Below the pieces are notes generated by a model. It had not been told where the DNA came from and made no database searches. It saw only the letters and a list, made by a program, of their open reading frames with translations. DNA of 64,000 nucleotides, from the NCBI GenBank assembly GCA_000002435.2, contig CM018791.1. One strand, 5' to 3'. This DNA is from Giardia intestinalis. Taxonomy: Eukaryota. The translations under genes were made by a program, and so were the position numbers. Shown here piece by piece: positions 5,683-55,581 of this stretch (positions are counted from its first letter, which is position 1; each line of letters begins with the position of its first letter).

Positions 5683-5693
5683 TAACAGATGGA

Positions 5694-9899: not shown

Positions 9900-10034
9900 G
9901 TGTGTTTCCTACCCGCAGAAACTAAGTGTCGACACCTACGAGGTGATTAGTAGCAATCTAGAGGGCACAGCGCTTGACCTAAAGACCAATATGGCTTTGT
10001 GCCAGTAATTTTATTGACCGCTCTTGATTGGCGG

Positions 10035-13574: not shown

Positions 13575-13754
13575 CCTCTTACATAGATATGAATTAATAC
13601 AGATCATTGTACTAGCAATCTGTCTATAGAGCAGTGCAGGGGACTCTGCCAGAACTATTATATACACTAGTAAATCAAGGTGTACCATAGTCGAAGGGTG
13701 CCATAGCTCTGTCAGTTTAACAACAAAATTCTTGGGCGAAGATTTACTCTGAAT

Positions 13755-25798: not shown

Positions 25799-25845
25799 TT
25801 TAAAAATCGTTTTTAGGCCAGAGCTAAGACCTAAAGACTGGGTGT
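25799..25845. promoter_or_regulatory. 47-bp divergent intergenic spacer with an AT-rich element (ttttaaaaatcgttttta), a presumed bidirectional core promoter
   Basis: It lies between ATG 25798 (minus) and ATG 25846 (plus). An AT-rich tract directly abuts both start codons. Very short AT-rich initiator regions upstream of ATG are known for diplomonad genes (established knowledge). The sequence is not matched to a specific motif. Confidence 0.4.
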
Positions 25846-28800
25846 ATGGCGTCTCTTCTTGTTCCAAAAGCTTTCTCTCACCTTACCAAGGGGCAAGATG
25901 GAACGTCCACTTTCAAAAGGGTTTCTTCTCCCATCAGATCAAAGTCAATCTCATCATACCTAGCCGCTAATACACGTTATTTAAAAGTCGCGCCAGCCTC
26001 TCTTCCCAAGAAGCTGGATCTTGATAGCTTTATTAACCAGGAAAAGGTTCGCACTAGTAATGTGCGAGATCTGGAGACCATGGCCGAGCTGATGAACCTG
26101 GCCCCGAGTGCAACGGTGGATCCAAAGGAGGTGAGAGCAAACTTCGTTTTAGAACAGATACTGGAGCAAAACCTGGAGGTATGTTCTGGGAAGGGATATA
26201 TGAAGCCCGGAATTACCGAGCATGCTGATCAGTGGCACGAAGTAGACATTGTTGGAGTTTCCAACGATGCGTTTCGCGTTCTGTTTCCACAGCTCGAGAT
26301 GTTTCGGCAGGCAAAAATACATAATATTATTATTGAGGGTCTTCAAGTGAAGCAAACCCCCTTGACTCTGGACACAGATATGGAAGGCACAGTGGAAAGT
26401 TCAGGGATTTCATTAGATTGTCTCACAGGAGATGACTTGATGGAGCTTTTTAAGCTATCCTTTCGGTCAGAAGACAAAACTTTCTTCAGGTCTCCTACTG
26501 GGGTTTACCATATTCGTAACGACAAAGCCGTATCAGCGTTTTTGGAATCTAGAAAACGAGACCGTGAAGCCGTGCTGGCTGCTTCTAGAACTGCAGTGGA
26601 ATCCCAACACTTCCCAGAGCACACGTATCCAAGTACCCTGGACCTATCGGGCACCGATGAGACAATGGACATGCAGTTAAAAGATTTGGAGGTAACTGCC
26701 ACAAGAGCTACTGGCGTTAATCCAGAAGATACCTCCGATCTATCAGTCTTTACCATCACGTCTAACCCTAGAGATGAACTACAGCGTTCTAAGCCACATG
26801 AGTTTCAGTTCCGGCAATTCCTTAAGGAAGACACACCTTTAATATCTCTTCCCACGGGAGAGCCTCACAGTTACAAGAGCAATCTCAGGGGTTATTTGGA
26901 AGCCTCAGAAACGGAAATATCATCTTCCCAACTGCAAAACAGACAGTATGGAGCTACCAAAGGATACCACGCATCTGTCCTTCTATCATCCACAGCAAAT
27001 CAGACTAATATCACAAGTGCACTTGTGCCTGCAACTAGTGATCGCAAAAAAGATCAGATACCAGCTGATGACTCAAGCAGACTTGTCAGCGAAAGCTTCG
27101 ACATCCTAAGCACCCTCGATATCCTAGAAAGACGAGACAAGGAGGCCGTGGCAATAGCATCCCCACCAAAGTTGGCCCACACAGAATGTGCACCAATAAT
27201 AAACACAACAAACAGCGCATACGCATACGCACACGCACACGCACACGAGTCATCAGAAAAGGTAGCCTTTCAGTATATCGACCGCAACAATCAAGTGATT
27301 GTGCGCGACATCAACGAGCAATTCCTTCAGAAGTTCTCCAGGATACACATCTATCAACGGATGAAGGAGAGCTTTGAGGCGGCGCTTAAAAGGCTAAACC
27401 AGCTTGTCGAAGAAAAGAGCACTGCTAATAGACCGTACTTGGACTTTCTTTCCACTGCATACATTGGGCACACTCTCTTCTATAATCTCAAAACGCGCTT
27501 GAGTGAAGACTACTGCATCGATTGCGTAGCTGAGATCGAGGAGCGTCGACTGCGTGTGAAAAATCGCGAACGAGACTATAATTTATTCATATCCACACTC
27601 CAGGCCATTAAAGACAAATCAGAGCAGCTTCAAGATATACGTAGCAAGTCTGTTTGCGGATTCACAACAGTGGTCACGGCCCCTCCTCTCCCCATCCTGC
27701 CGTCCATTTACAAGGAAGACCAAAAAGAGGACAAATCCGTTGCTAAAAGAGCCACTTTCTGTGCTGCATCTGCGCTGGAGGATGAGGCATCGGAAGAGTA
27801 CGTATTAACTTTAATGCAGCTTCGCCAAAGGCGGGAACGCGTATATGATCATTTTGAGAACATGATAGCGGGGCACAAGCAGGTGCGTTCTGCCGCAGTC
27901 GAGCTATGCTTGAGTGCCATTAATACTAGTCGTGTCAAGCTAGAAAGTCTTGTTAATCCTGCGCTTAAGCGTACAGCTCAGTTTGATGGCTTTGATGCTC
28001 TCGATAACCTGTACAAAAGCTACATCGATCATGCGCTGAGGACCGATTTTGCCACTGAAATTATTGAGCAAGCAGATAGAGACCCAAGCCACGAACTGTA
28101 CTGGTGTGCACGGCAACTCCTCCGACTCAAGCATTCCAGCTACAAGAACTATCAGAAGTACAAGTATCCTAGCTTCTGTCCTCATCGCCGGGAAGCCTTT
28201 GAAAATGCTCGTACGGCCTTGATGGAGAACAAGATATTTTGGGGGGCATCTGAGTACAAGCGTGTGTTCAGTGATCTCATGTCCACGGTGCAGGAGCATC
28301 TGCAATACCTTATACTCACCCCAGAGCTGCTTACACATCTTCAGGACACATTCATCCCGAAAATAAGTGATTATCTCTTTGCGAATATGGTTTTCCAGAC
28401 AGACATAGACAAGGACACTAAAGCTCTTCTCTCTAGACCAAGTACTGGAAGGGTCAATCTGCAGAATGCACTACAGACGCTCCCCGGCGGGGCCAGCCCC
28501 GATAAAATTTCCTATGCATCAGAAAGCTCTGTGCGAGCAGATAACGGCCATCAGAAAAGACCAAGAGAGGACCCCGAGGACCGTGATGTTAACGTCCAGG
28601 CCACCAATCAAACACTAAATCCTGTTCTCAAAAGACCAGTCAATCAAGAACTAACAAGTGGGGCAGACCTACCGATTCTCAACGCTGCCTACAAACCCAA
28701 GAATGCCTACGAATGGATTCAGCGTAGATACTGGCAGATTCAAAGCAACCGTGAGCAAGATATCTTCCGACGCAAAGAAGAACTGGCACGCCGAGACGCT

Positions 28801-31800
28801 GAAGAGGCTGCTAAGACCGCGTCCGCCCTGATGACCAAAGACTTCAGCTATAAGCCTGGAGGGCGCACGCAAGCTGAGGAAATATACGAGAAGATCTTCA
28901 AGTTTCCTGCTCCAGGCGAGACGAACTTCATGGAGAAACTCAGCGTTTATCTGGCTAACTGTTTTATCTTGCTTTATGAAGTCCTCTTTCCATTTATTCA
29001 AGAGTCCCTCATGCTAAACTTTTCGGACCTTGCCTTTGAGCAGATGACCAGGAAGGTGAAAGCATACTGCAACTTAACGGGGATTTCACGGGACTCTCTC
29101 GCTGCAGATATTGCGTTTGAATTTCAGTGCCAAGCTCTTGAAGAAAATAGGCTCCTACTTCGTAAGGTACAGAAGAAATTTGAGATTCTTCTCTTTAAAC
29201 TACTATACACCTACGTAATGGAGGACATTTACCCCCAATGGTCCGTCTTTATCCTCCTCCTCTTTCATGGAGCTGACCGGGACATGCGCTACATTGCTCA
29301 ATCCAAGGCCCTAACCTCGTTTAGCCACGTTCTAAATACTTCGCGGTTTAATGACGAGTACATGGGCATTCTTAAAAAGGCGCACGATCTGAACATCACA
29401 ATGGGGTACGCAAAGCTTTACACTGACGTTGAGAAGCTTGACAGCCTATCTATGAGCTCTCTTGGCGGATTTGTGGCTCCTAACTGTACAGCTGACTTCA
29501 CGCAGAACTCCCCACTGGCCATTCAATTGAATAGAACACTTGCAGACGCAATGATGAAAAATATCAGTCTTATCAGTGATATAAATAGAACCAATGGCAA
29601 AGCACCTCAAGCAATGGTACTTGACGCACGTGGAGCTAACGCTCACTCTACTATCTGTTCAACACATCCCACGGCAGTTGTGCAAGATGTTCCTGAAACA
29701 ACCACAGGTGATGCTTACCTCTTCACGTCTGCAGATGTCCTCACCATTTCTGTCCAGCGAATCCAGAACATCACAGAGATGCATGACTTTATCTACTCTC
29801 AACCTACTCAGTGGTACTTCTCTGAGAGAATTATAACAGACATTAGGTACCTAAACAAAGAAGAGGAAGTTCAGTTCTCGTTGGCTGAGTCACGGATGAA
29901 GGAAATTATCTCTTTATTTGCCAATACCGAATGCGTACTCTCTGCCGTTAGAAATCAACGCGGGCTTTTGACTAATCTACTCTTCACGCCGTCTCCAAAT
30001 GATATTTTCTCCAGTTTACCTATGTTTGTCTACGACCTTGTGGATTTTTATTCCTCGTGTCCAGTTTTTGCTGACAACCTATTTCCAGAACCAGGATCAT
30101 CAAGCAAGGATCCTGCCACACGCCCCTTTGGTGCCAAGTACAATATACCTACTACAACCGATAATATGAACAACTTTACGTTTGAGGCTATTGCCCGGTT
30201 GGGAAACGACGAGCCCCTCCAAAGGGTTATCCACGAAGTCATCACTACAGACAATAGTCTACCTATACGGAGCGGATCTGATCTCATGGTGACCCTAGGC
30301 AACAACTCATCGTTGCTTGCCGGTATCAGTCGTCGGTCCATGAAGAAGACAAACGCTAAGAAGGACATATTACGGCGTACGTTGCTTAGGAGCACAAGCC
30401 ATCAGGTTTCCTCACGAGCTGCCGTTCGCGCTAGCGGAAGAAGCATCAACTTTGGTTACTCGTCGCAGGAAAGTCCGGGAGAATCTCGACGGCGTGCACG
30501 TAGCAAGCTCACACAGTACAGAACTCGCAATGCCAGCCCACCCACTGTGCCCATTCGCACGTCCCAAGTCGTTCCAGAAGGAGACGTCCCCTTTATGGAC
30601 ATGACGGGGAAATCAGACCTTACTACCGTCGCCAACATCTCTTTTAATATCAAAACTAGAAATACTACATATTCACAGCAGGTCGCATCGTTCTTTGACA
30701 CCCATGGTCGGATTGGAACCTACATGGAGGCAAGAAAGTGTAACCGCTTGCACTATGAGCCACCAACCATCCTCTATAGACTAGCAAATCTCACCAAGCA
30801 TGCAGCACTCAATCTCAAAAACTACTTAGATATGGTTCTTGCTTTCTTGATGCGATATGCTAAAGAGAGTCTCAAATTTGCAGAGCGGCTGTTGAACGCG
30901 CAAGAACTGGTTCCCAGCTTCATAATTGAAAGAAATTGGCAGGTGCAGAGCTTACTGAACAAAACGCAAACTCGCATAAAGGAGTACTATAAAGCAGCGC
31001 GCATGTCGCTCCATGCAACATTCAAAGACAGGCACTGTGAGGAAAAGACGAAGGCCTCTGGGAAGGAGGCTTTACAAGAGCAAAGGCTATTATCAGAGCA
31101 TGCCCACGACCACGGAGCGCCTTCGCTTCCCCCAAGAAGGCCCTCATGTGGTGACAGTACGACTGAGCCAAACAGTATATTCGGTGACACCTTTATAGAC
31201 AGAGAGCTTCCGTTCGTTTATGAAGCTGAGCTTCTGTCCCAGTTCTTGCGGTCTGATGTCCTTCTAACAGCATTCACGGCTGATTATGTCACTGGCTCAG
31301 CTCCTCCAGAAATTCTTTTGTCCCAGATAATGTCACTAACAAATAAGTCGAGCTACGTTTCCAGAGCACTTCTAGCTGCATATCATTTATACGATGGCTT
31401 CTGGTGCTTAACCGTTATGCCCACAGAGTGCTTTTTCGGAACGCTCAAACTAGACCTTAAGCAAGTACTTGTTCGGCTACGGCATATTTACGAGAACATT
31501 TTCTTGTTAGCAGCGTCGCGTATCGATGATTATATATACTTAGCCTCACGGGTTGCCCAGACATGTGTACAGGCAATGCAGCTCTCCTTTGGCTCCGCCA
31601 AGTTTTCTACTCTGGAGGAGATAGGGATGTCCTTTAGCCTCTTTAGGACATTCATGCACAACATTCCTGTCTGGGGTGAATACCTCAGTACCATGCAAGG
31701 TGTGGAGAATCATCTCTCAGAGGTCGCGTACGGAACGAAAATAAGCTCAGTCTATGCAAATTTGCTTCGATATCGCATCCAGGTGTCTAGGATGCTCTTT

Positions 31801-34800
31801 GCCAATCAAGGATTACTCCCCAAGATAGGCAGCTCTCTGCACACTGTGCATCACATAGCCAGAGGTGTAATTAGTCAGATTGAGAGCTGGGTCTATTCTG
31901 CCTCTGAATCCATTTTCCCACGAATCGTTGAGATGCTCTCACTCACGGCACACGACAAATTAAACTGCAACAGAAACGTCTCTGACTTCAGGCGACGCTT
32001 CGCCAATAGCATATGCAGGAATCTATCGCTGCCCTTTGGGATAGATTCTACACAAGCGTGCACCGGGGCATCGTTTCAACAGCTTCTTTACGCTAGCATA
32101 TGGGCACAATCTGGGCTCCCCTTCCTTTCAAAGAAGAGTATTCAGGACTCTCGCCTCATTTTGCAGCAGAACAAAATCGATTACCGTACCACTAGCTCCT
32201 TTCAGTTTTTCGAGAGACCTCAGACAATCCACCCTATTCATATTTCAACCGTGTTTCTTGAGATGGAGGACTTAATTAAGCGCTTGATCGAGCTGCTACA
32301 GATAACCAACAAATCAAATTGTGAAATCTTGGGCTTCTACAACTCCCCAGACTATAAAGATCTAAGCCCGGCAGAGCTATTTACATGGCTAGAAAAGAAC
32401 GGTGAATTTGCACGTGTTGACAAGATAGACTATGTGCTCTTTGGAGATAGCAACGACATGACGAAGATAGGGATAAAGGTTGAGTCCGACACGAGTGAGG
32501 AGAAGCTCGCTGAGATAAGAAAGGCGAAGCTAGCATATTACTCCAGGTTGCTGACGCGAGGAGAGCCTCTTCCTATCAAACCAGAGAACATAAAGCTCAT
32601 AATAAGCGAATCCCCATACTTGCCCGATGTAACCATCGAGACTAGATTGCGATCACTGTTGCCCCTGGTATCTCTCACTTGCAAGCTGATTCTCTTAAGT
32701 GACGACCTAAGCACTCAGATTGAAGATTGGTTCTCTCAATCTATCAATGCAATCTCCATCCAGGACATCAAGATTGCTATAATTCACGCTATAGATGTCG
32801 CTCTTTCGTTTCTTGCGTCTGTCGGCGACGAAATTGCTATATCCTCCATTGCCCGTATGATCTTTGAAACGTTAAGCAAATACCGGCAACAATTCATCGT
32901 CCTTTTCATCATAAAGGCTGCTCTGGATAATACGCAAGTAGGCTTTGGATATGATGTAACTGCGTACGACACGTTCCAGCCGTACAATAAGGGTGACATT
33001 TCCTTCGACGAATACCTGGGTATAGATAGTAGAGAGCCTCTAACCATATCTCTATACGTTAAAGACCTGCTCTCTAAGGCCCAGTATCAATTAACAGATG
33101 ATGTCATAGCAAGAAAAGCTGTGGACACCTTCATTGAGTATGCCAACAAGCTGCATTTTGCGATGAACACATACTGCATTAAAACCCGAATTGATAAACT
33201 AATTCAGCTTCAGCATCATGAGATTGCATTAAGTGTTTTGAGTACGCACGAGTCCATTCTCTTGGATTCCTTTTTATTACCTGTCTTTTGTGATTCCAGA
33301 AGTGACTTTTCTCTTCTTGCAGAGCCGGACTTTTTGTCCACCGAATTTTCTAAAACACCGGACGCCAGCTCATGCCTTCTTCCTCCCATGCGTCCAGTTG
33401 TGCATATAAGCAAGGTTAACGGTCGTTCTGGCATAGGAAAATTCATTACCACGGTTAACTGTGCTGGGTACTATAGCTATAAGTCAATTGTAGCTAAGTC
33501 TCTCATGCACGATTTACATTTACCCCCTCTGCGGATCCTGAAGATGACTCCTGCTATCCGCTCGCTGCGGAAACTGCGGTATCTCATGGTGGGTGGATCT
33601 GAGCGTATGCTTATGCAGTCGATGCACCATTATCAGGCGGATCTTCTCACATCCTTCACTTCCTACCACACTGACAGCCTGTTTGATCTAGAGTGGCTCA
33701 GCTCCTCGTCAATCATTTCCTATTATAACACAACCACGGGAACACTCTTTAGCAAGCCTATTTCTTGTTACAATGTATGTAAGCCTGAAATAGATGAATA
33801 TCTGGCTGATCTCGCCCGCGGGCCAATTGCTGCATGTCTTCACAATGCCTTAGAGCAGAAGAGTGACACGGCAGCACAGATAGAGTGGGCATCTGTTGTC
33901 GAAGCCCTGGGATTTGCACTAGCAGACTTGAGATCCATGGACAGTAGCTCTAGGGTGGAACACGTTCTTCAAAACAGACTCGAGGCGTTCTGGAATAATC
34001 TTGCAGATGTCGTGAGCTGCTCAAGCTTTTACAGGGACGCATATGAGCATAGTTCTGCGGCAAGATATGTCTTTCAAGTGTCTACTCCGGATACCTTTGA
34101 CGATCTATACACAACTGACAATACCATTTGCTTACACTCCCGTAACCTCAGGGATCTTCTTCGCATACGTAAGTTGCACCAGGGTGCTAAGCTTCGGCCC
34201 AAACAACTCGCTGTCCCCAATGCTGGTAATCTTTCGCCTTTCATCTCTGGATATATATTTCCATACAGTAACCCATTTATCACGCGACTCAAACACTTTC
34301 AATTCACCGTTATGCGTGGGCTTTATGAACAGCAGCTCTGGATGGAGCCAGCTGTGTCACATCTCTATAATATCAACGTTATAGTACAGCTTATCCTGCT
34401 CCAGTCGTGTGCGTTTCGAGAGCTATCTGCTCTCAATTTGTGTCTTAGCATTAATCACTCTGCCTCAGCATCCTTTGAATCAGAATCTTCGCTAGCTATT
34501 AGGATTGCTCCAGAAGGCTTGAAAAAGAGCGCGTGTAACATATTCTGTTATAAGCCGTTCATAGAGTTCCCTTCCCCTCCAGAGACCTTTGGTCAAGTAG
34601 TGAGTGACCTAATCATGGCCTTGAAATATGCATCTGTGTCCCGATTTAATGCTAACTTGAGCTTTAACCAGTTAGCTCTTCGGAAAACGTCGCGCCAGGG
34701 CCTGTGGACTCTATGCTCAGACATCTTCAACACGCAGACAGCCGCTATCAAAACAAATGCTCACGTTTGTAGCAGCCAACTTCTGAATCCTCTTCGCACG

Positions 34801-37800: not shown

Positions 37801-40800
37801 TTCGATCTGATGACAGACACATACACCACCGAACTGCTTATTCTATCATTGGTGCGTATATTGACGGACTTCCAGCTCTCCAGCAACACCCTTTCCTTAA
37901 AAGCGCTTCTCAATAAGTCTGGGACTGGGCATGGTACTGCTTTGAACACTAAAGAAGAAATTTTCAAAATCTACAATGGATTAGATACCGTTTCAATCAT
38001 CAGTGCAATCCACGTGATACGAAACCTTAGCGAGCTGCATACTTTGTACAGCGGGGAGGTTATTCTGGACTCTCACTGCATCTACATATTAGTGATTCCC
38101 GAGCAGCACATCCCAGTCACCTCAGATCGCTACTATCACATCATGCGCATATTATCAGCCAAAAGAGAGAGCACCACCAAGCTGATTGTCCTTACAAACT
38201 GTCGCTCTATCTATGGTCGCTATGTAGAGCTGGGAATCACCACTGAGAGCCCGCTTGCTCAGGAGTTGGATGGGCCTTGTCTTCATGGCATGCTGAGCCA
38301 TGCGCATCTGCTCTACGAGTTTGCGAGCAACTTATCCTATAGCAATATAGTAGAGAGCTACAATGCTTCAACGGGCGCCTTTGCGGAGCTGGAGGCAGCA
38401 AACGTGTCTGCAACTATGTTCGAAGAGACACTCTCCAATTTCGTCTTCACTCTTGAGCAGCGTATCTTTGTGGTTAACTTGGCCGAGTGCCTCAAGATAT
38501 TGTTTGTTCCCATCCTATACATCCCCCTTGAAGCTTACAAACTAACCCCCACTCTGTCAACTCAAACTCTGTCTGGAATTTTGACGATCTACCTTTACTT
38601 GTTACAGCTCTACTCCGTGCTCACTGCAAGGCCAAAGCTAGGAGCACTACGAGCGTGCATCTACCCTCACTACAGCTTTGAGTGCAACATGGACTTTTTA
38701 ATGATCATTACATTGATAACAGATAGGTTTTCTACAGCTCTTGCGTACATAATCGCTATTCTCTTCTCTTTTGCCACCACAGCTGTCAAGCTCTTCTTGC
38801 TATGTTCTACTGATCATGTCTTCAACCGCGAGTTACTCCTGTCTAAATTAAACAATGACCCGGCAACTGCTCTAGCAAAGCATCACAGTAAGTGCCTTTG
38901 CGACATGATACAACTGGTTCTCCTTGAGAAGAAGGGCAAAACCCAATATGAATGTGCAATGAACAAAATTTCGTCTGAGTTCAATCAACCACTATTTGAA
39001 TGTACTCAGATACTAAATCATTATTTCAAAGGCATCATTGATTTGCTGAATTTGCCAGGAGATTCGCACGTATATCGAACGCCATATCTTTATCTACTTC
39101 CGCAGTTTCCAGACTTGTCCGCATCCATAGAGGCCACATGCAGTTCTTATGAATCCATTCTTGCTGTCCGCACAATTGTAGGCTCGTACAAGCACTCCAA
39201 GCCTGAAGCCCTCGATCCTCTGCGCCACGTTACGTTTGAATTAACTCCGCTACCTTATCCTAGTGACTTCTTGGCAGATATCACGGATGCCCAGGTTCCC
39301 ACGGGAGACCATGAGGCAGACTTGCTGGTTTATCGGGCTGTTATCTATCAGCACAAGGGCATCAGCAGAGAGGACTACAAAGGGTTTTCCCTTGCTTACT
39401 GCTTGGCTGCGTCCGCTTACTTCTGCAGGCCTTTTTGTCTCGCAGCTAGTCTCTTCGGAGTTCAGAACACGGTTGTGCTAAAGTATGCATACCCTCTCAT
39501 CAAGCAAGACTGCTCCACCATGGTTCACACTGAGTACGTGTCGCCGTCTTCGGTGACATCTAGTTCTTCTTTAGATATTCTCTCACTGCGTTCGTACTAT
39601 CGTGTTACTAAGTTATATTTGCGTGACGAGTCAGATATCCGCGTGTTTCTCTCTCGCCACCACACCTGGTTTTGTTTAACAGAGGACTCTAGTGAGAGGC
39701 TTGCTATAGCCTTTGTGCGAACGATTATCATTATAGAAGTGGAGTGTCCAGAAGTCCTAGCATCGGGCTTTCTGTCCTCTTTTGCATATCATCAACTAAT
39801 ACAAATGCCAGATTCACTTGGTCATGTAATGACATACAAAATGGTCAATGTTTGTCCCATAATTAACATTTGCTTGGCCATAGGGCAAACGAAAACTAAT
39901 GTTAACGCCTTGAACTTGCTTAGCCATTTGTATTGTCCGCATGCCATAGCAGATTGTTATTCTAGTCCCGAAGGGGATACCGGTACTGCAGCGCTTTTCA
40001 CCCCCACACAGCAAGTTCTGCTCTATGTCCTTCAAACAGAAATAGGGGCCTTGCTTGACCCTGCAGCCGTTGTGCATCTGTGTAAGCGCCTCGCATGTTT
40101 ATCAATACCCTACACTTCTCTCTTGCCTATCCTTTGGGCATTCTCCCAACTGTACTCTCTATATTTATATTCAAATGTATTAACTAGTCAGGGCACTCGC
40201 TCAATCAACTCGCCAGAGACTTCCACAAGGACCACAGAAGCAGTTGACAGCCTACTTGACTTCGTCTACTTTCAGCAATTTGGGCTTCAGATTGCATCCA
40301 GCAGCAACTGGTCGAATCCTCAGCAGTTAATAGAAACCATGGTGACCAACTTGATACCAGCTCTTTCCTCTATCTCAGTTGAGTCCTCATCTATTCTTGC
40401 GAGCTCATTGAGTAGTGAGCCTAGCATTTGTCCGGTTTTTTCTAAAAACTATCTATTACAAATTCTTTCTATTCATATCAATGCAGTCCATATGCGAAAT
40501 CTTTTTAATAGGATTATGTTCCATTATGCTGGAACTGTGGATAGACGCGACAAGGTATTGATGCGAATGCGACAGGCAACATCTTCAAGTTCAAACGATA
40601 ACCTACTTGCACCTTCTACCCGCAATAATTTACTGCCATCCTTTAGCTTGGATTCTATAGATACTTCTTTTAGAAGTCCATTGATCATCTTGGACAAGCT
40701 TTTGAAGGATGCCTTTCACAGACGCCTTCCATCCACGAAGCTAGAAAAACTATTCACCTTGCCGTATGTGAGCGGCATTCGGACGCCTATTTCCGTTGTC

Positions 40801-43800
40801 ATTTCATCGTACTTATCTTACGACGAATTTGTCTTCACCGTTTCACGCCTAACCTGCTCCGAAGTCAAGGTCCCAATGAGCTCAAAGCGGACGTCCATCA
40901 GCTCAGTGGTTGTTGACCTAGGAGGAATCTGTGGTGCCTATCCTTCTGCAGATATAGGTGCAAACCAGACCCTTGGCCAGCTTTCATCTAGAGAAAGAAT
41001 ACTGATGGGTATCCGGGCTGCCGTTGGAAGCATCCTCCGTCTATCTCCTTCTATCTACATGCCTACAAATGCGCGGAAGGACCGGACAGACACGTATCTT
41101 CTTCGAGCGTCTGTCTCATATTATGACGAGCAAAGAGAGAGTTGTATGGCTACAGCACCAGATAATATAAAGAAAGACGCTGGTAGGTATTTGTTTGGCA
41201 CATCTGCCGCTGCCGATGAGTACTCTGCCTCCATGTTTGAACTCTCGATCCCGTTTCCCGTGGGCAGGTTCATAAGCATACCATCCCCGTCCTCCACTAT
41301 ATGCTCGAACATCCATGATGTTCAGGCATCTCTATACACCTTTGCCACATATGCCGGGTTTCAACCGGCGATGCTGCCCGAGTACAACAGGGTAATAATT
41401 ATCGCTCCAATATCTCTACTTCTGGGAACCAGTACACTGGACGTGCTATCGTCTCTTGGTGAGATGTCGTCCTCAGAGAGTCTTTGGCAGCCATCGGAGC
41501 TGTCAGATGTTCTATCTGATTTTACAACCAATACCTCTGTCTCAATGCCAACACTGCCCCTCCTTAATAGTATTATTGCCACTAGACTGAGTATTTTCAT
41601 CTTTGATGATCTCAACATTATGGACTCTAAAGCGGTCCTCAGCCCTGAGCTCCAGCGTCTACGCGCACTTGCCACTATACTCAATCTGCAGGACTATTCA
41701 CACATATTGCCCACAAATCTTCAAGTGTTTACGGAGGCCTTTAACTTAGATTACTTCTATACTGAGGAAACATTTGGAGAGGAGCTCAATGACACTGACT
41801 CTAATGAAGCAGCATCGCCTGTGCTCGGTAATGATATCCACTTGCTGACTACTCCCTCAAAGGAGAAACCGGTGAGTTTTCTTCCCGGCGATCTGTTAAC
41901 GTTTACTGAGATAGCCACGAATAGCACAAATCCTTACATTATAACAATGAGGCTCCGGTGCTCCTATCTTCTTAAATACATGTGGAGGCTCTTCAGTTCA
42001 GAATACACTCTTCCCCAGAATATACTGTTGGCTGTGTTTGGCTCAGCTGGCAACGGGTATGCACTTTCTAACAAATCCATTCCATCCACCGCGATAACGG
42101 TTAAGTCTCAGTTGGAGAGCGTGCAGAAGTCACGCGTGCTATTGTCAGGCAATTCTACTCGGCTGCAATCCGGACTAAGTAACTTTAGTTCTGCCAGGGA
42201 TTTGTCAAACGAAGATTTTGGGTCAGCACAGCTTGATACCGAACTTCGGCAGCTCTCGAAGCGAACATTACTATATTGCAACCTAATATATAGAATCCTT
42301 GCGACTGGGGCCATAAAAGAGAACCCTGTCGTAACCTCTAAGCAGACTACTTTGCTCTCTGACAAATTTATCCGTGGAGCAAAGGAACCTGTACCACTAG
42401 CCACAGATCCTGACTCTGCTCAGGAGTCCTCATATCATCACTCAGAGTCGCAGTTCGACTCTCCTCGACACTTATCACTCGAGAAAGGTTTGGACTCAGA
42501 TACCACCAGTGATTCCGCCACTTCCACACTCATTAAAGTTATCCTCGAACTGTTGCCGCAAGCGACTGCTGAGTTCTCAGTTCTGAAGCACTATGTGTCG
42601 ATAGAACTAATGACTTCACTCGCTAATGCACTCAGCAATAGCATAGTGCTATACTATTCCAAGGAGCATCTGTCCATTCAAGATAGTGCTGTTACATTGG
42701 CCAATTTGCAGCACCACATCGGCACTCTCCAAAGTGCTGCAGCTTCCCATGCCAAGTGCGTAGAGGAGGTTGATAGCCTTATCCAGACACAAGAGGAATC
42801 TATTTCGACCTTACTAAAGCAAGAGGTGGAATATCAAACAACGGTGAATATGCTACTCTCAGAAAAGGAAGCTCTCGGTTTGACCCTTGACACCCAATTA
42901 GAGGATCTGTTCTTAAAGGTGGAACCTTGTCGCATAAAGATAGAAGAGGCCATCAGCTTTCTCTATCGCCTATTCCATGTCTCATTGGAAGCATCGCCTG
43001 ACCTCCTGCTCTCTGACATCTCCGTGGAGCTTTTAGTATCCTTGTTTGGCGTATCAAGAACCTTCCTCCAGGCATCAACACTGTCCATAGATACTGCGCT
43101 ATCTATTAAGTTAACAGAACTCGATATTAGCCACATTCTTAATACGCCTCTATCGCCTGCTGCACTGACCCTTCTAGAAGAAGAGCCGTCTCCCAAGTCT
43201 GCTCTGAGCGATTGTCTGTGCCGCCTTGGAAGTGCTATTGTTGAATACAAAGCTTTGCTAATGCCACATACGATGCTGACAAACAATTCTGCCTATGCTA
43301 ACTATCATAAGCTTGCCATTTTGCTTGCTCTAAAACGGGTGGATGAGGAGCTAGTAAAAGCTCAGCTACAAATAGCAGGGGTCAATTTGGAGAACTATCG
43401 AAAGGAGCGAGCCAATTTAGAAACCCAGAAGAAGCTACTTCTAGAGACAGATGACATCCGTGTGCCCCAAGAAGATATCCTTGCACTTATTTCCAGGCGT
43501 ACCGACGATGAGCTGCACTGCCGACGAATGCTACATTTGGCTGCTTTGTACGGAAGTCTGATCTCTGCATGCACGCTCTTTGGCTTCCATCACCTTGGTC
43601 TGTTCACTGCTATGTTGGATGCATCCTTTGGCAAGACCAAAGATGCACAGCTCTGTGTAGGCTGTCAGCTCGTTGATCATGGAGCTGCGTGTCATGCATG
43701 TCACAACTGTCGCTGCTTTTGTCGCTGTACACGCACCTATCAGCCCACTGGTGCATATGTAACAAACGCAGCGCAGACCCTTCCACTTCTCTGCACAGAC

Positions 43801-46767
43801 ATCACTAAAAAGGAGCACTTGTTAAATGTCGTAACTAAGGTCTTCGGAGAGGTGTGCCTCACTAAGTCATCGCTCCAGTATCGCCTTACCTTAGGTCACA
43901 CTGCTCTCTTGGAATACATAAGCTGCGTTGTCCTCTGTCAGCTTCCTTCGCGGGCCCCAATATACGTTTCTGGAAATATTCTGCATAGTGCAATTGCAGA
44001 GGCCGTCTCTGGCTCACCCGGATATACAGTAATATCCATGAAAAATGAGAACAAGCTGGTGGATGACACAGAAGAATTTTATACATCGTTTGTCAATACA
44101 TTGCAGGAAACTCTATCCGCTCATACTCACAGTGTGATCTTCTTGAAGGTGGAGACAATCAATTGGAAAGCTCTGGATTTGCTAGGTGCTTTAACATATG
44201 ATTTGAAATTGGTAGCAGGATATGGCAATATAGCCAATACTGTCGATCATAACTTCAACAAGTACAGGTTTGCTTCTCCTCTCTCTAGCTACCACTTCTT
44301 TGTAACATGGGGCCCTGAGGTCACAGAAGTGTTTAGGAGCGTCTCTACGCGGTTGAGCCTCCCTAACTTATTTCTCTTCTCACAGGCATCTTTTGCCGGA
44401 GGCAATTTACAGAGCCTGAGTACGTGCATTCTAGACTCAAAGACAGCTACGCGAACTCACTCGCTTGCTAGCTCTATGGCTGTGCACCGAGAGAATTTAT
44501 CAGCTATCATAGTTTCGTTTCTCTCCCAGTCTTACTTCACTGACCTGGTTGCGTTGAGGCTGGAACAAGAGAGCTTAATAAAGCAATCTAAGCTGGGAAT
44601 GAAGCAATTTACAACTATGCATCTCGCTTCCGATGAGAACACCGTGCTAACTATGCTCCCAACTATACATCAGCAGATCACTACACAGACGCAGTACATA
44701 CTGTCCATAAACTCTATTGAAAAGAAGCTGCTCGCACTCATAAAGCAACGAGATGCGTGGACACGTGGCTCTGACTCGATTGTTTCTACAGCTACCCAGA
44801 CATTACTTGCATTTTCAAACTACTTGGCAAGATTGAGTGTTCGGTATCCGGCCCTGAGCGCATTCTGGACAACGCTTAGCCCAGAGAATCTTCAGAAGAT
44901 CATTGACTCAATGGATGGTGTCATGAGAGATACAGTGTTTGCTGGATCGTTCTATAGGTTCATACTGTATGCATTATTGCCTCTCCTTGCTCGAGCACTG
45001 CCAGTTCAACAATACTATATTACTGTTCTTGCACTGATAGTAATAGGAGAGCTATCAGCGCGTACTGCCATCCCCTCTACTATTACTACTTGGGAAGCAA
45101 TTTTCAAAGCAACTGAATCGGAATTAGACGAGCTTGTGACAAAGGAGCTTAATGCATTGCTGCCTCAGGCCAAAACACATGCCCTGCACTCTAACATAAT
45201 TACCTGCCTCAGTATCCTCGCAGAAGAAAACACTGTGTCTACACGGTTAATAGATAACATTTCCTCACTCACCTCTACTATTCGCCCACAGTGCAGTCCA
45301 TCACAATCTGATTATGATTTTCTCAATTCAGAGCAACCTCATTTTATCAAGGGCGGGAATCCTATCTTGTTTTTTACAGAAGACCCCATAGTTACTTGTA
45401 ACGCGCTGGCAGGAAAGCTACTACAGGCCAGACGACCTATCACCATTACGGCGGCGTCATCTATAGCTACACAATCTAGGATGAAGCTAAACGATCTGTC
45501 GTGGATCCATACTCTAGCAGCTCTTGAGGAGCCATTCTATAGCGATGAGTTTCCGCGAGCAACAATGTTTAAGACCAGCCATGACGCTTCCCAAGCATCT
45601 TCACTATCTGCAGTGACCATTGTCATCTGCCAATCAATTGAGTTGGTGGAAGTAGTGTTGCGCTCAGCTCGAGGAATACCTGGTAGACTTGTCATTGTCT
45701 TGTGGACAGGCTATATGGACACAAGTCCATTGAAAGAGTCTATGGCACTTATAAAGTTGTTGGCGGCGTATCCGACTGTGGCATGTGTGCATAGCCGCGG
45801 TCATCTAAGCAGCTCTGCTAAGAGTATGACGTATAGGCCTCCCCTGGCATCTCTTACACGATCTCATCTCTATGGACAGCAATCTTTGCAGCAGATGTAC
45901 AAGCATCCTCCTACGGCATGGCTTAACCTGGCCTTGGATATTATCTTCCCTGCACTGAGCCCGGAGCTTACTTTGCCAATGACCCCTTACGTATACTTGC
46001 GGCTAGAGCGGCTGTCTCTACTCAGCAGCGTCGTCACCGAGGAGTATTGTCCACCAAACACTATTATTGAGAGTATGTTGTTTCTAGGAAATGGAGTAGC
46101 AAGCAAGTTTTCACCAGCCACCATAATTCAGTACAGACAGGTAGATCTGACGACATTGCTGGACGGATCCCTCTTTCAGAAGCTTATCGCCTATATTCTT
46201 CGACCTCTCTGTCTTACGGATAGTGCACAGCGCATCATAACCCTGTACCTGTTCTGTCTTTGGCTCTTCATTAAGCATCTCAAAAAGGATGATCCGGAGA
46301 CTCTAGCAGCAAAGGTGGCCTCATTTTCTCTCGGCGAGGTATGTGATACGCACCTGAATGGCGTGATGTGGCCTAAGGATCAATTTCTGGCTATCATTCA
46401 ATCTTTTGGTGTTATTCTAACATCAAAACCAGTTGAGTGGACCAAACACAATGACTCACTGGTGTGGCATCATGCGAATACCATTTCTGGCCATGCACCG
46501 CTTATGGGTCGCTCTAGAGAGCTTCCTAAGCCAAGCTTTTGGTACCCCACAACACCAGTATCCACCCCTGCTTACCCAATAACCTACAAGGTCGCAGCTT
46601 CCCCTGGCGGTGGGTTCCACTGCTATGCTGTACCTTTTTCCAGACCTCTTCAGACCAATACGCCACCCGAGGACCCTGAAGCCACAGGGGATCGCACAAG
46701 CGAAACGCACCATGATTTACTTCTGCAACCTGCTCCGACCGGGGCCATATCCTTGCTCAGAAGCTAA
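25846..46767 (+). CDS. Giant hypothetical protein, 6973 aa, a single 20.9-kb exon
   Basis: ATG at 25846 and TAA at 46765-46767, with one uninterrupted frame. Every antisense or alternate-frame ORF inside it is 132 aa or shorter. No P-loop is present, so dynein heavy chain and midasin are excluded. It carries a Cys/His cluster at 43654..43728 and an in-frame hexanucleotide microsatellite at 27217..27246. Confidence 0.8.
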   Translation: MASLLVPKAFSHLTKGQDGTSTFKRVSSPIRSKSISSYLAANTRYLKVAPASLPKKLDLDSFINQEKVRTSNVRDLETMAELMNLAPSATVDPKEVRANFVLEQILEQNLEVCSGKGYMKPGITEHADQWHEVDIVGVSNDAFRVLFPQLEMFRQAKIHNIIIEGLQVKQTPLTLDTDMEGTVESSGISLDCLTGDDLMELFKLSFRSEDKTFFRSPTGVYHIRNDKAVSAFLESRKRDREAVLAASRTAVESQHFPEHTYPSTLDLSGTDETMDMQLKDLEVTATRATGVNPEDTSDLSVFTITSNPRDELQRSKPHEFQFRQFLKEDTPLISLPTGEPHSYKSNLRGYLEASETEISSSQLQNRQYGATKGYHASVLLSSTANQTNITSALVPATSDRKKDQIPADDSSRLVSESFDILSTLDILERRDKEAVAIASPPKLAHTECAPIINTTNSAYAYAHAHAHESSEKVAFQYIDRNNQVIVRDINEQFLQKFSRIHIYQRMKESFEAALKRLNQLVEEKSTANRPYLDFLSTAYIGHTLFYNLKTRLSEDYCIDCVAEIEERRLRVKNRERDYNLFISTLQAIKDKSEQLQDIRSKSVCGFTTVVTAPPLPILPSIYKEDQKEDKSVAKRATFCAASALEDEASEEYVLTLMQLRQRRERVYDHFENMIAGHKQVRSAAVELCLSAINTSRVKLESLVNPALKRTAQFDGFDALDNLYKSYIDHALRTDFATEIIEQADRDPSHELYWCARQLLRLKHSSYKNYQKYKYPSFCPHRREAFENARTALMENKIFWGASEYKRVFSDLMSTVQEHLQYLILTPELLTHLQDTFIPKISDYLFANMVFQTDIDKDTKALLSRPSTGRVNLQNALQTLPGGASPDKISYASESSVRADNGHQKRPREDPEDRDVNVQATNQTLNPVLKRPVNQELTSGADLPILNAAYKPKNAYEWIQRRYWQIQSNREQDIFRRKEELARRDAEEAAKTASALMTKDFSYKPGGRTQAEEIYEKIFKFPAPGETNFMEKLSVYLANCFILLYEVLFPFIQESLMLNFSDLAFEQMTRKVKAYCNLTGISRDSLAADIAFEFQCQALEENRLLLRKVQKKFEILLFKLLYTYVMEDIYPQWSVFILLLFHGADRDMRYIAQSKALTSFSHVLNTSRFNDEYMGILKKAHDLNITMGYAKLYTDVEKLDSLSMSSLGGFVAPNCTADFTQNSPLAIQLNRTLADAMMKNISLISDINRTNGKAPQAMVLDARGANAHSTICSTHPTAVVQDVPETTTGDAYLFTSADVLTISVQRIQNITEMHDFIYSQPTQWYFSERIITDIRYLNKEEEVQFSLAESRMKEIISLFANTECVLSAVRNQRGLLTNLLFTPSPNDIFSSLPMFVYDLVDFYSSCPVFADNLFPEPGSSSKDPATRPFGAKYNIPTTTDNMNNFTFEAIARLGNDEPLQRVIHEVITTDNSLPIRSGSDLMVTLGNNSSLLAGISRRSMKKTNAKKDILRRTLLRSTSHQVSSRAAVRASGRSINFGYSSQESPGESRRRARSKLTQYRTRNASPPTVPIRTSQVVPEGDVPFMDMTGKSDLTTVANISFNIKTRNTTYSQQVASFFDTHGRIGTYMEARKCNRLHYEPPTILYRLANLTKHAALNLKNYLDMVLAFLMRYAKESLKFAERLLNAQELVPSFIIERNWQVQSLLNKTQTRIKEYYKAARMSLHATFKDRHCEEKTKASGKEALQEQRLLSEHAHDHGAPSLPPRRPSCGDSTTEPNSIFGDTFIDRELPFVYEAELLSQFLRSDVLLTAFTADYVTGSAPPEILLSQIMSLTNKSSYVSRALLAAYHLYDGFWCLTVMPTECFFGTLKLDLKQVLVRLRHIYENIFLLAASRIDDYIYLASRVAQTCVQAMQLSFGSAKFSTLEEIGMSFSLFRTFMHNIPVWGEYLSTMQGVENHLSEVAYGTKISSVYANLLRYRIQVSRMLFANQGLLPKIGSSLHTVHHIARGVISQIESWVYSASESIFPRIVEMLSLTAHDKLNCNRNVSDFRRRFANSICRNLSLPFGIDSTQACTGASFQQLLYASIWAQSGLPFLSKKSIQDSRLILQQNKIDYRTTSSFQFFERPQTIHPIHISTVFLEMEDLIKRLIELLQITNKSNCEILGFYNSPDYKDLSPAELFTWLEKNGEFARVDKIDYVLFGDSNDMTKIGIKVESDTSEEKLAEIRKAKLAYYSRLLTRGEPLPIKPENIKLIISESPYLPDVTIETRLRSLLPLVSLTCKLILLSDDLSTQIEDWFSQSINAISIQDIKIAIIHAIDVALSFLASVGDEIAISSIARMIFETLSKYRQQFIVLFIIKAALDNTQVGFGYDVTAYDTFQPYNKGDISFDEYLGIDSREPLTISLYVKDLLSKAQYQLTDDVIARKAVDTFIEYANKLHFAMNTYCIKTRIDKLIQLQHHEIALSVLSTHESILLDSFLLPVFCDSRSDFSLLAEPDFLSTEFSKTPDASSCLLPPMRPVVHISKVNGRSGIGKFITTVNCAGYYSYKSIVAKSLMHDLHLPPLRILKMTPAIRSLRKLRYLMVGGSERMLMQSMHHYQADLLTSFTSYHTDSLFDLEWLSSSSIISYYNTTTGTLFSKPISCYNVCKPEIDEYLADLARGPIAACLHNALEQKSDTAAQIEWASVVEALGFALADLRSMDSSSRVEHVLQNRLEAFWNNLADVVSCSSFYRDAYEHSSAARYVFQVSTPDTFDDLYTTDNTICLHSRNLRDLLRIRKLHQGAKLRPKQLAVPNAGNLSPFISGYIFPYSNPFITRLKHFQFTVMRGLYEQQLWMEPAVSHLYNINVIVQLILLQSCAFRELSALNLCLSINHSASASFESESSLAIRIAPEGLKKSACNIFCYKPFIEFPSPPETFGQVVSDLIMALKYASVSRFNANLSFNQLALRKTSRQGLWTLCSDIFNTQTAAIKTNAHVCSSQLLNPLRTHLSGYRLLFSAIVEATLYESYYSPVCRPKLALKVPELTSKHQDPLPFILIPLPQRIIDAISTVLACCGYTGYEFVAFKLLYPTGVYVYYIDGILQRSRYAQRWTKTYSIPQSSSDQLLFTKDTVSYSLLIDPVQRVLTEREALEYIPLATPLCFQYLHLLFTTTTIAFINHCLSLSFGLYTTQFANLLQTELLCSAPDSPYRNELSYFVRGLPLRITIHAIRKLMLNIQEGAIYQHKDSLETLDNLGNLVGSLRQLVIDHRKYKVLTFDKSYTDLILERAMHRLSRLHDLRAEPLTIYTGDPLKLGELYAARTSDSSYHPAMHSADVDSLCALSSSDEDDDALDPGVDAEEALTNLRNKLDHRLEHTAHSQMRYNADLCRADRQLSGSVDQTCATSTSPGAGDTVSRAMTVDRFLTIGQITSLFGFSNSMLEASILLPCFSDARSQHILDVLDEMDTLLSTVRGCVNRNPDTGDISIEQTISVCPDFMNTYSSLITCPTKEIEKYEDSLGQHLRTISAQSSPKVDQSMYTFCQSEIEAISSFHNEVYSEGGLIGRLGSAPLEVDAPYFAPSFRGLTSFVKATELLLLEHFAILVTPTTTGYSDPRVLNFLNVKLPLHMAYSVIFVSVASRFFSASEVLKLLATPVLVVIRDLTSEPVKNNLPASLQELASLFATISTVKAPGRLIIWDPSLIAAASEPVVYELSPVLRSALGAAQIPISSHYIVMASDLFEWCMPPPIVSLPQPIVCLAKLLSGYISMPKVSLDTIGSFISRISSCTSGADTEPRASYRMAVGLLSLQCHTNHRLMTLLEAISSVIGKSELGLGFTGKNALEALRTFLGIEFWGTKVLLAVAPRLPAFVYLLSPNPCSNAVHKLASISIIGPVIDNTSTRDLELTGPHINCSAPILLEVLTSVCLPCIHCPRWVEMFYEQFYATDCRGLVPLNTKGWGILASLAYSILNRVDNLIHGLYLGITDFKLDFSSTSCLSIIEKVSAQPVLTHGFDLMTDTYTTELLILSLVRILTDFQLSSNTLSLKALLNKSGTGHGTALNTKEEIFKIYNGLDTVSIISAIHVIRNLSELHTLYSGEVILDSHCIYILVIPEQHIPVTSDRYYHIMRILSAKRESTTKLIVLTNCRSIYGRYVELGITTESPLAQELDGPCLHGMLSHAHLLYEFASNLSYSNIVESYNASTGAFAELEAANVSATMFEETLSNFVFTLEQRIFVVNLAECLKILFVPILYIPLEAYKLTPTLSTQTLSGILTIYLYLLQLYSVLTARPKLGALRACIYPHYSFECNMDFLMIITLITDRFSTALAYIIAILFSFATTAVKLFLLCSTDHVFNRELLLSKLNNDPATALAKHHSKCLCDMIQLVLLEKKGKTQYECAMNKISSEFNQPLFECTQILNHYFKGIIDLLNLPGDSHVYRTPYLYLLPQFPDLSASIEATCSSYESILAVRTIVGSYKHSKPEALDPLRHVTFELTPLPYPSDFLADITDAQVPTGDHEADLLVYRAVIYQHKGISREDYKGFSLAYCLAASAYFCRPFCLAASLFGVQNTVVLKYAYPLIKQDCSTMVHTEYVSPSSVTSSSSLDILSLRSYYRVTKLYLRDESDIRVFLSRHHTWFCLTEDSSERLAIAFVRTIIIIEVECPEVLASGFLSSFAYHQLIQMPDSLGHVMTYKMVNVCPIINICLAIGQTKTNVNALNLLSHLYCPHAIADCYSSPEGDTGTAALFTPTQQVLLYVLQTEIGALLDPAAVVHLCKRLACLSIPYTSLLPILWAFSQLYSLYLYSNVLTSQGTRSINSPETSTRTTEAVDSLLDFVYFQQFGLQIASSSNWSNPQQLIETMVTNLIPALSSISVESSSILASSLSSEPSICPVFSKNYLLQILSIHINAVHMRNLFNRIMFHYAGTVDRRDKVLMRMRQATSSSSNDNLLAPSTRNNLLPSFSLDSIDTSFRSPLIILDKLLKDAFHRRLPSTKLEKLFTLPYVSGIRTPISVVISSYLSYDEFVFTVSRLTCSEVKVPMSSKRTSISSVVVDLGGICGAYPSADIGANQTLGQLSSRERILMGIRAAVGSILRLSPSIYMPTNARKDRTDTYLLRASVSYYDEQRESCMATAPDNIKKDAGRYLFGTSAAADEYSASMFELSIPFPVGRFISIPSPSSTICSNIHDVQASLYTFATYAGFQPAMLPEYNRVIIIAPISLLLGTSTLDVLSSLGEMSSSESLWQPSELSDVLSDFTTNTSVSMPTLPLLNSIIATRLSIFIFDDLNIMDSKAVLSPELQRLRALATILNLQDYSHILPTNLQVFTEAFNLDYFYTEETFGEELNDTDSNEAASPVLGNDIHLLTTPSKEKPVSFLPGDLLTFTEIATNSTNPYIITMRLRCSYLLKYMWRLFSSEYTLPQNILLAVFGSAGNGYALSNKSIPSTAITVKSQLESVQKSRVLLSGNSTRLQSGLSNFSSARDLSNEDFGSAQLDTELRQLSKRTLLYCNLIYRILATGAIKENPVVTSKQTTLLSDKFIRGAKEPVPLATDPDSAQESSYHHSESQFDSPRHLSLEKGLDSDTTSDSATSTLIKVILELLPQATAEFSVLKHYVSIELMTSLANALSNSIVLYYSKEHLSIQDSAVTLANLQHHIGTLQSAAASHAKCVEEVDSLIQTQEESISTLLKQEVEYQTTVNMLLSEKEALGLTLDTQLEDLFLKVEPCRIKIEEAISFLYRLFHVSLEASPDLLLSDISVELLVSLFGVSRTFLQASTLSIDTALSIKLTELDISHILNTPLSPAALTLLEEEPSPKSALSDCLCRLGSAIVEYKALLMPHTMLTNNSAYANYHKLAILLALKRVDEELVKAQLQIAGVNLENYRKERANLETQKKLLLETDDIRVPQEDILALISRRTDDELHCRRMLHLAALYGSLISACTLFGFHHLGLFTAMLDASFGKTKDAQLCVGCQLVDHGAACHACHNCRCFCRCTRTYQPTGAYVTNAAQTLPLLCTDITKKEHLLNVVTKVFGEVCLTKSSLQYRLTLGHTALLEYISCVVLCQLPSRAPIYVSGNILHSAIAEAVSGSPGYTVISMKNENKLVDDTEEFYTSFVNTLQETLSAHTHSVIFLKVETINWKALDLLGALTYDLKLVAGYGNIANTVDHNFNKYRFASPLSSYHFFVTWGPEVTEVFRSVSTRLSLPNLFLFSQASFAGGNLQSLSTCILDSKTATRTHSLASSMAVHRENLSAIIVSFLSQSYFTDLVALRLEQESLIKQSKLGMKQFTTMHLASDENTVLTMLPTIHQQITTQTQYILSINSIEKKLLALIKQRDAWTRGSDSIVSTATQTLLAFSNYLARLSVRYPALSAFWTTLSPENLQKIIDSMDGVMRDTVFAGSFYRFILYALLPLLARALPVQQYYITVLALIVIGELSARTAIPSTITTWEAIFKATESELDELVTKELNALLPQAKTHALHSNIITCLSILAEENTVSTRLIDNISSLTSTIRPQCSPSQSDYDFLNSEQPHFIKGGNPILFFTEDPIVTCNALAGKLLQARRPITITAASSIATQSRMKLNDLSWIHTLAALEEPFYSDEFPRATMFKTSHDASQASSLSAVTIVICQSIELVEVVLRSARGIPGRLVIVLWTGYMDTSPLKESMALIKLLAAYPTVACVHSRGHLSSSAKSMTYRPPLASLTRSHLYGQQSLQQMYKHPPTAWLNLALDIIFPALSPELTLPMTPYVYLRLERLSLLSSVVTEEYCPPNTIIESMLFLGNGVASKFSPATIIQYRQVDLTTLLDGSLFQKLIAYILRPLCLTDSAQRIITLYLFCLWLFIKHLKKDDPETLAAKVASFSLGEVCDTHLNGVMWPKDQFLAIIQSFGVILTSKPVEWTKHNDSLVWHHANTISGHAPLMGRSRELPKPSFWYPTTPVSTPAYPITYKVAASPGGGFHCYAVPFSRPLQTNTPPEDPEATGDRTSETHHDLLLQPAPTGAISLLRS
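27217..27246 (+). repeat. Imperfect hexanucleotide microsatellite (gcatac)2(gcacac)3 inside the giant CDS
   Basis: Direct reading gives gcatacgcatacgcacacgcacacgcacac. It is in frame and encodes AYAYAHAHAH. Confidence 0.9.
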
Positions 46768-55473: not shown

Positions 55474-55581
55474 TGAAGCAGATTTTGTATTTTTGAGACG
55501 GTTCACCGGCTGCCAGCCCAGTAAATATTTGGTGCAGGCAGCAGCCGGCCGTTTACTGACCTCGGCCCTACGGGTGGACAG

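Follow-up and report, generated by a model that had tools for sequence, protein, structure and literature searches.

The gene GL50803_30233 of Giardia intestinalis WB, which lies within the 64,000-nucleotide stretch of contig CM018791.1 (assembly GCA_000002435.2) analysed here as the window, encodes one of the largest proteins without an assignable fold or function. The interpretation that we favour, and to which we give a probability of roughly 0.55, is that of a giant, non-repetitive, mainly alpha-helical multi-domain scaffold, restricted to Giardia and carrying a conserved cluster of eight cysteines (Cys8). It is close to certain that the gene is genuine and cannot at present be placed in any known family. 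Eukaryotic proteins of more than about 5,000 residues that lack repeats belong nearly all to a few well-known families, among them dyneins, midasin, VPS13-type bridges and giant ligases. A repeat-free protein of 7,000 residues that is fully constrained and has no assignable domain is unusual and merits experimental follow-up. Its gene model became public with the WB genome, labelled as a hypothetical protein.

The coding sequence is a single exon (25846..46767, plus strand) that runs from ATG to stop over 6,973 codons plus the stop, with an in-frame stop 18 nt 5' of the ATG. Its product, of 6,973 aa, 780.7 kDa and isoelectric point 6.2, is rich in leucine (12.8%) and serine (10.4%) and matches exactly GL50803_0030233 / GL50803_30233 (XP_001706934.1, UniProt A8BHW4), which the database lists for G. 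intestinalis WB as a "hypothetical protein". An initial annotation, made from the letters alone, had called this 20.9-kb frame certainly coding, and the figures bear it out: at the base composition of the window the probability of a stop is 0.050 per codon, so that one is expected every 20 codons or so, and 6,973 codons without a stop would arise with a probability of about 1e-156. Three open reading frames (ORFs) of at least 120 aa overlap the giant frame, namely one of 132 aa on the minus strand, one of 256 aa that begins with TTG, and a convergent kinase gene.

Selection and conservation tell the same story. Between the coding sequences of assemblages A and B, at synonymous sites that are near saturation, the ratio of non-synonymous to synonymous substitution rates (dN/dS) is 0.081 overall (Nei-Gojobori); it lies between 0.04 and 0.16 in 13 of the 14 bins of 500 codons, the remaining bin being too saturated for dS. 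The gene is therefore constrained along its whole length by strong purifying selection within the genus Giardia. The assemblage B orthologue (6,949 aa) is 75% identical, can be aligned over its full length without any indel larger than 6 aa, and sits in the same gene neighbourhood. The G. muris orthologue GMRT_10929 (TNJ30450.1), recovered by an exhaustive HMMER search with aa 5600-6799 at E 3.7e-68, has 6,207 aa and is about 31% identical over its length; it is 766 aa shorter because its variable linkers carry deletions and some 77 aa are missing at the C-terminal end. Synteny, seen with assemblage B, and orthologue length, which had both been suggested as checks, fit a single gene. The assemblage B protein (KWX13989.1, partial) and TNJ30450.1 are true orthologues, collinear with the giant from the first residues to near the C-terminus, and they share its conserved blocks, its Cys8 cluster and its hydrophobic cluster. 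Both are likewise annotated as "hypothetical protein" and so add no functional information.

An assembly that fuses several genes, which had been named as the finding that could overturn the initial annotation, or else a decaying pseudogene, would be another way to explain so long a frame. No evidence for either was found; one NCBI record from assemblage B is a fragment of 4,476 aa, which we put down to a fragmented draft assembly. The full frame is intact in 10 independent further assemblage A assemblies (11 sequences with the reference), which differ in length solely by one microsatellite unit at aa 458-459, and in at least 12 from assemblage B, and no internal stop is present. Peptides have also been detected, as had been proposed for a proteomic check: the supplement of a GlActin pull-down study (PMC8552679) lists the protein with 3 spectral counts in one replicate, which is weak protein-level evidence. 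Given the collinear orthologues, the low dN/dS, the intact frames among isolates and the peptides, fusion and pseudogene alike are practically excluded, and the ORF is a genuine, intron-less, expressed single gene. Beyond that supplement, we found no mention of the gene ID in the main text of any paper, nor was it present in the supplements of four Giardia omics papers; matches to "30233" in PMC6312909 proved to be digits within decimal numbers and not the gene.

At the level of sequence, GL50803_30233 is restricted to the genus Giardia. With aa 3001-6973 as query, a word-indexed search across 5.8 billion proteins returned the assemblage B orthologue and nothing else; with aa 5600-6799, the exhaustive HMMER search, which covered 1.84 billion representatives, returned the G. 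muris protein and nothing else; and two metagenome scans with N-terminal profiles gave no relative. Pfam yielded no match at E<=1 for the two halves of the protein or at E<=10 for ten tiles of 760 aa, and no family shared by the three orthologues when each was scanned; NCBIfam gave no match, and phmmer and hmmsearch runs against PDB sequences, with two- and three-sequence profiles over the whole protein, produced nothing relevant at E<=10. A strict Walker A motif (GxxxxGK[ST]) is absent, looser matches falling in low-complexity or helical contexts. Classical coiled coil is nearly absent, with one short heptad-like stretch, and no internal repeats emerged from self-BLAST or from hhalign comparisons of 500-aa tiles, in which forward scores equalled those of reversed controls. 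The initial annotation had seen no P-loop, no kinase, WD or ankyrin domain and no long heptad-repeat segment, and had set the protein apart from midasin; all of this holds, and the profile searches did not produce the assignment to a known giant family that it had named as a refutation. The profiles are very thin (effective number of sequences, Neff, about 1.5-1.7), which limits the detection of remote homology and of repeats, so that a distant relationship could be missed. In a lineage as divergent as Giardia, where about half of all genes carry the label "hypothetical", undetected homology is less surprising than it would be elsewhere.

A three-way alignment of assemblage A, assemblage B and G. 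muris resolves the chain into conserved blocks (aa ~95-170, 480-860, 945-1200, 1290-1480, 1585-1725, 1790-3290, 4974-5085 and 6000-6330) and variable, deletion-tolerant segments (aa ~200-480, 860-945, 1200-1290, 1480-1585, 1725-1790, 3290-3400, 3700-4000 and 5100-5600). The N-terminal 3,000 aa or so form the better-conserved half, with blocks that are 35-48% identical to G. muris. The first of these contains the pattern ..CSGKGY.KPG....WHEV.I.GVS.DAF.VLFPQ.., and the best-conserved core is part of a longer, nearly indel-free region at aa ~1790-3290. Amid the otherwise fast-evolving C-terminal half stands a conserved island (44% identity to G. muris over aa 5001-5100) with the pattern ..SGIR.P....Y.EFVF..SRLT.SEVKVP.S.KR... 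Segment-wise AlphaFold modelling had been recommended; applied with AlphaFold2 (AF2) and DSSP to two segments totalling 1,913 aa (aa 1788-2500 and 5600-6799), it supplied secondary structure and no reliable fold, the predicted local distance difference test (pLDDT) scores being 33-38. The core at aa 1788-2500 is predicted to be almost purely helical, with helices of 30-46 residues (pLDDT 38, at which the three-dimensional arrangement is unreliable). In the C-terminal segment (pLDDT 33) the predicted order is a helix of about 99 residues (5611-5709), some six short helices over about 124 aa (5710-5833), a long helix of about 79 residues (5834-5912), a coil that holds the Cys8 cluster, an alpha/beta block, a helical hairpin, a helical bundle and a second alpha/beta block. 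The tip of the first hairpin and much of its arms are poorly conserved and indel-rich relative to G. muris; at the tip, identity is 52% between assemblages A and B and about 20%, with many indels, against G. muris. The first alpha/beta block belongs to the best-conserved part of the C-terminal region, where aa 6001-6300 are 81-89% identical between A and B. A Chou-Fasman-type predictor, calibrated on the AF2 DSSP assignments, recovered 6 of 41 strand residues and was abandoned.

The dense Cys/His cluster that the initial annotation singled out is real. It reads CVGCQLVDHGAACHACHNCRCFCRC and follows the pattern C-x2-C-x(5-8)-C-x2-C-x2-C-x-C-x-C-x-C, with all eight cysteines kept in assemblage B and G. 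muris. The pattern matched no zinc-finger model; the cluster is a putative metal-binding knuckle, the metal probably being zinc.

Taken together, these features lead us to favour a scaffold that serves a structural or organising role over an enzyme, as no nucleotide-binding or catalytic signature is present. Conserved helical blocks would be joined by variable, indel-tolerant, flexible linkers; one conserved eight-cysteine knuckle, probably stabilised by zinc, would be set among them; and in the C-terminal module a long helical hairpin would precede two alpha/beta-plus-helical units. The scaffold role is something that we infer from the absence of catalytic motifs together with the helical content, and metal binding, a cytosolic location and any partner have the same standing. 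The initial annotation had proposed a lineage-specific scaffold or cytoskeletal component: lineage specificity stands, for the genus and at sequence level, whereas the scaffold or cytoskeletal part is not established. Huntingtin, Tra1/TRRAP and Fry/Furry are comparable, being very large, mostly helical, non-enzymatic along most of the chain, rich in leucine and serine, and built from conserved blocks and flexible linkers. These proteins have 2,000-3,800 aa, are widespread in eukaryotes and contain detectable HEAT/ARM-type repeats, whereas the Giardia protein is about twice as long, gives no repeat signal and occurs in one genus.

More tentatively, and at somewhat less than even odds, the protein may represent a new class of non-repetitive megaprotein with its own folds and domain order, evolved in Giardia to build or organise a Giardia-specific structure, and not a diverged form of a known giant. 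We would place it outside all known kinds because, for each family considered, at least one of the defining features looked for is missing. Given that so long a chain, free of repeats and of recognisable domains, is constrained throughout, Giardia appears to invest heavily in a machine or scaffold that annotation has not seen. If truly new, it would represent an unrecognised structural system in a major human parasite and a parasite-specific target.

Several points weigh against the scaffold interpretation. "Scaffold" is a default drawn from the absence of motifs, and the sole experimental trace is the one weak proteomic match. Both structure models, at the pLDDT values given, determine no fold. 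The exhaustive search was made with a C-terminal query, outside which the better-conserved N-terminal ~3,000 aa lie, and other diplomonads could have relatives. For the C-terminal model, the top-ranking Foldseek matches were dynein motor domains, which hints at a known ancestry, and three conserved hydrophobic segments could signify a membrane protein in place of a soluble scaffold.

The last of these points leads to a protein with three or four transmembrane helices at aa ~4206-4322 and huge cytosolic arms on both sides, which might act as an organelle tether or channel-associated scaffold, compatible with an orphan scaffold though different in mechanism. The segments, of 19-27 aa and with a mean hydropathy of at least 1.5 (Kyte-Doolittle), cluster mid-chain within a stretch of 120 residues and are hydrophobic in all three orthologues, a property kept even though identity there is about 20-26%. 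They may be transmembrane helices or buried core; charged residues and prolines occur in them (E, K, Q, P), the buried helices of large helical proteins are often just as hydrophobic, the N-terminus does not resemble a signal peptide, and no membrane-fraction proteomic evidence was found. On balance we regard a membrane protein as unlikely. A diverged member of a known giant family, whether VPS13/BLTP, midasin/RNF213, a HECT/UBR/RING ligase, a PIKK-type HEAT kinase or a BEACH protein, is quite unlikely, despite the fact that most non-repetitive eukaryotic proteins above 4,000 aa fall into these families. Giardia sequences evolve fast and its proteins are notoriously divergent, thin profiles could have hidden remote homology, and the Cys8 cluster could be the degenerate zinc finger of a ligase-like module. 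However, none of the three orthologues has a signature domain and the PDB profile searches are empty. For VPS13/BLTP there was no Chorein_N, VPS13 or ATG_C match in Pfam, and the repeating beta-groove of that family differs from the helical or alpha/beta character of all 1,913 predicted residues. Midasin and RNF213 are set aside because P-loops are lacking; there was likewise no AAA, VWA or RING match in Pfam. The giant ubiquitin ligases (HUWE1, UBR4, HERC, BIRC6) would be betrayed by HECT, UBR-box, RING, UBC or RCC1 domains, none of which was matched in Pfam or PDB. HEAT/ARM solenoids and PIKKs gave no HEAT, ARM, FAT or PI3_PI4_kinase match in Pfam and no internal repeat, within the power that thin profiles allow. 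The Foldseek lists contained no member of any of these families.

The remaining possibility is that of a catalytically dead and extremely diverged derivative of a dynein heavy chain, which would serve as a static strut bound to microtubules or cargo and not as a motor. Under this hypothesis, which was set out before the Foldseek search, aa ~5610-5912 would be the stalk hairpin, the later alpha/beta-plus-helical units and second hairpin would be AAA5, the buttress and AAA6, and upstream would lie AAA-like modules without P-loops and a greatly extended helical tail. The predicted order and sizes of the elements in aa 5600-6799 do resemble those of dynein from stalk to AAA6: in the low-confidence model, the last ~1,350 aa recall 3VKH, 7MGM and 9DH8 in having a long antiparallel hairpin with a small helical tip and two alpha/beta-plus-helical modules split by a second hairpin, and the ~1,060 aa that follow the hairpin come to roughly the size of dynein AAA5, AAA6 and C-terminus. 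In a Foldseek comparison with 350,542 PDB chains, ranks 1-4, 7 and 9 went to the motor domains of Dictyostelium, yeast and human dyneins, in alignments of 950-1,190 columns (384 for yeast 7MGM) that were non-significant, the best E being 0.087; other very long AAA+ or solenoid proteins were not in the list. The candidate stalk, a hairpin with a helical tip, was itself predicted at pLDDT 30-53. Unlike a functional microtubule-binding domain, its tip ranks with the least conserved stretches of the giant and with those richest in indels; the Cys8 cluster is inserted after the hairpin, and about 5,600 aa precede the hairpin, where dyneins have roughly 3,200. Cytoplasmic DHC1 is reported to be lacking in Giardia although it is present in Spironucleus (Kollmar 2016, PMC5100056), an absence that would suit a dynein relic.

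Sequence-based comparisons gave this hypothesis no support. None of the dynein Pfam domains (DHC_N1/N2, AAA_6-9, the microtubule stalk, Dynein_heavy/AAA_lid_11/Dynein_C) was found at E<=10 in the tiles or in the three orthologues. A reference set was built from database entries with Pfam dynein domains (120 C-terminal sequences of cytoplasmic dynein and 120 AAA1 fragments), starting from baits of which the first was 100% identical to a database protein. Aligned by hhalign with 105 dynein C-termini, the three-sequence profile of the giant reached a probability of 1.4% at best, on generic coiled coil. Eight dynein sub-profiles gave scattered, non-collinear matches, six of them no better than the reversed control, and the two that exceeded it (AAA6S, 32.7 vs 15.1; CTD, 26.6 vs 23.0) did so outside the C-terminal region; AAA1 and AAA3-4 profiles gave nothing. 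Collinearity was scored by forced-global dynamic programming, hhalign -glob and free-end-gap semi-global alignments having been trivial, and amounted to z = 0.4 and -0.06 relative to 58 controls (reversed, circularly permuted, block-shuffled and other-segment sequences). The same pipeline recognises fungal against metazoan dynein at 100% probability; a synthetic thin family is still found when 70% of its positions are randomised, and is missed at 80% or more. The verdict of the initial annotation, that this is not a dynein, accordingly stands by every sequence criterion and is qualified by the weak structural likeness, itself non-significant, that the last 1,200-1,350 aa bear to the stalk-to-AAA6 region of dynein; we consider a dynein derivative quite unlikely. 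Were it a relic without P-loops, it would strikingly exemplify how a motor can become a static element, in an organism that reportedly lacks cytoplasmic dynein-1. A likeness noticed by eye between NPILFFTEDP..ITITAAS in the giant and the dynein pattern PLIFILSPGxDP..ISLGQGQ was dismissed as pattern-seeking, the sequence and profile tests being null.

Features of GL50803_30233 and its 3' overlap, with residue ranges in the protein and positions in the window
Feature	Residues (aa)	Position	Strand	Basis and remarks
Coding hexanucleotide microsatellite (CGCACA)5.3	457-468	27216..27247	+	Tandem Repeats Finder (TRF); encodes AYAYAHAHAH
Conserved N-terminal block	95-170	26128..26355	+	~45% identical to G. 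muris; invariant columns
Best-conserved, nearly indel-free core	1788-2500	31207..33345	+	41% identical to G. muris
Three hydrophobic segments, 19-27 aa	4206-4228, 4242-4260, 4296-4322	38461..38811	+	Kyte-Doolittle
Conserved island	4974-5085	40765..41100	+	Identity profile, invariant columns
Predicted helical hairpin	5611-5912	42676..43581	+	AF2/DSSP, low confidence
Eight-cysteine cluster CVGCQLVDHGAACHACHNCRCFCRC	5937-5961	43654..43728	+	Motif scan, invariant columns
First predicted alpha/beta block	6038-6180	43957..44385	+	AF2/DSSP; strands YTVISM, SVIFLKV, HFFVTW
Second predicted helical hairpin, then helical bundle	6230-6308, then 6313-6483	44533..44769 (hairpin)	+	AF2/DSSP
Second predicted alpha/beta block	6514-6649	45385..45792	+	AF2/DSSP; strands ITITAA, TIVICQ, RLVIVLW, ACVHS
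3' overlap of the giant gene with the convergent protein-kinase gene, 51 nt		46717..46767	both	ORF coordinates

The coding microsatellite, also noted by the initial annotation, was confirmed and sits within the poorly conserved linker at aa ~200-480. One hexanucleotide unit separates the 6,973-aa and 6,971-aa forms found among assemblage A assemblies, and neither assemblage B nor G. muris has the (CGCACA)n repeat. At aa 3575-3590 (window 36568-36615) a hydrophobic strand is followed by VTPxxSGY, in which V3579, T3580, P3581, G3585 and Y3586 are invariant in the three species; the motif, at aa ~3579, is superficially like a degenerate P-loop without the lysine, and the dynein AAA1 profile did not align there. 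Along the coding strand between 26000 and 46000, AT skew starts at +0.12 (5' end) and moves to about -0.09 (3' half) while GC skew is negative throughout; the drift fits an N-terminal half richer in lysine and glutamate and a faster-evolving C-terminal half richer in leucine and serine.

The neighbours of the giant gene include ankyrin-repeat "21.1-type" proteins, a kinase with ankyrin repeats, an iron-containing alcohol dehydrogenase and a WD40 protein, a combination that is typical of Giardia. The convergent kinase gene (46717..48015, minus strand) has Pkinase and UBA-like matches, and in assemblage B its overlap with the giant measures 48 nt (contig L001, 30803-30850). Immediately upstream, a 2,430-aa ORF on the minus strand (17736-25028), again with no Pfam match, is a second sizeable orphan adjoining the giant, and its assemblage B counterpart has the same length and position (L001 1901-9193). 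The 817-nt intergenic region between the two holds the 256-aa TTG-initiated ORF (25097-25867, minus strand), which overlaps the ATG of the giant by 22 nt; at the equivalent place on the assemblage B contig a 237-aa gene has been called (L001 9268-9981). Further upstream, 2554-17582 is occupied by four genes of 1,042-1,401 aa, three for ankyrin-repeat proteins and one for an ankyrin-repeat kinase, which belong to the Giardia "21.1 protein"/NEK-like expansion. Downstream, a 2,006-aa ORF of coiled-coil type on the minus strand (49711-56736), with weak Filament and DUF7491 matches, overlaps by 150 nt a GTG-initiated, 384-aa kinase-domain ORF on the plus strand (55582..56736), and GC content reaches 0.565 at 56-58 kb.

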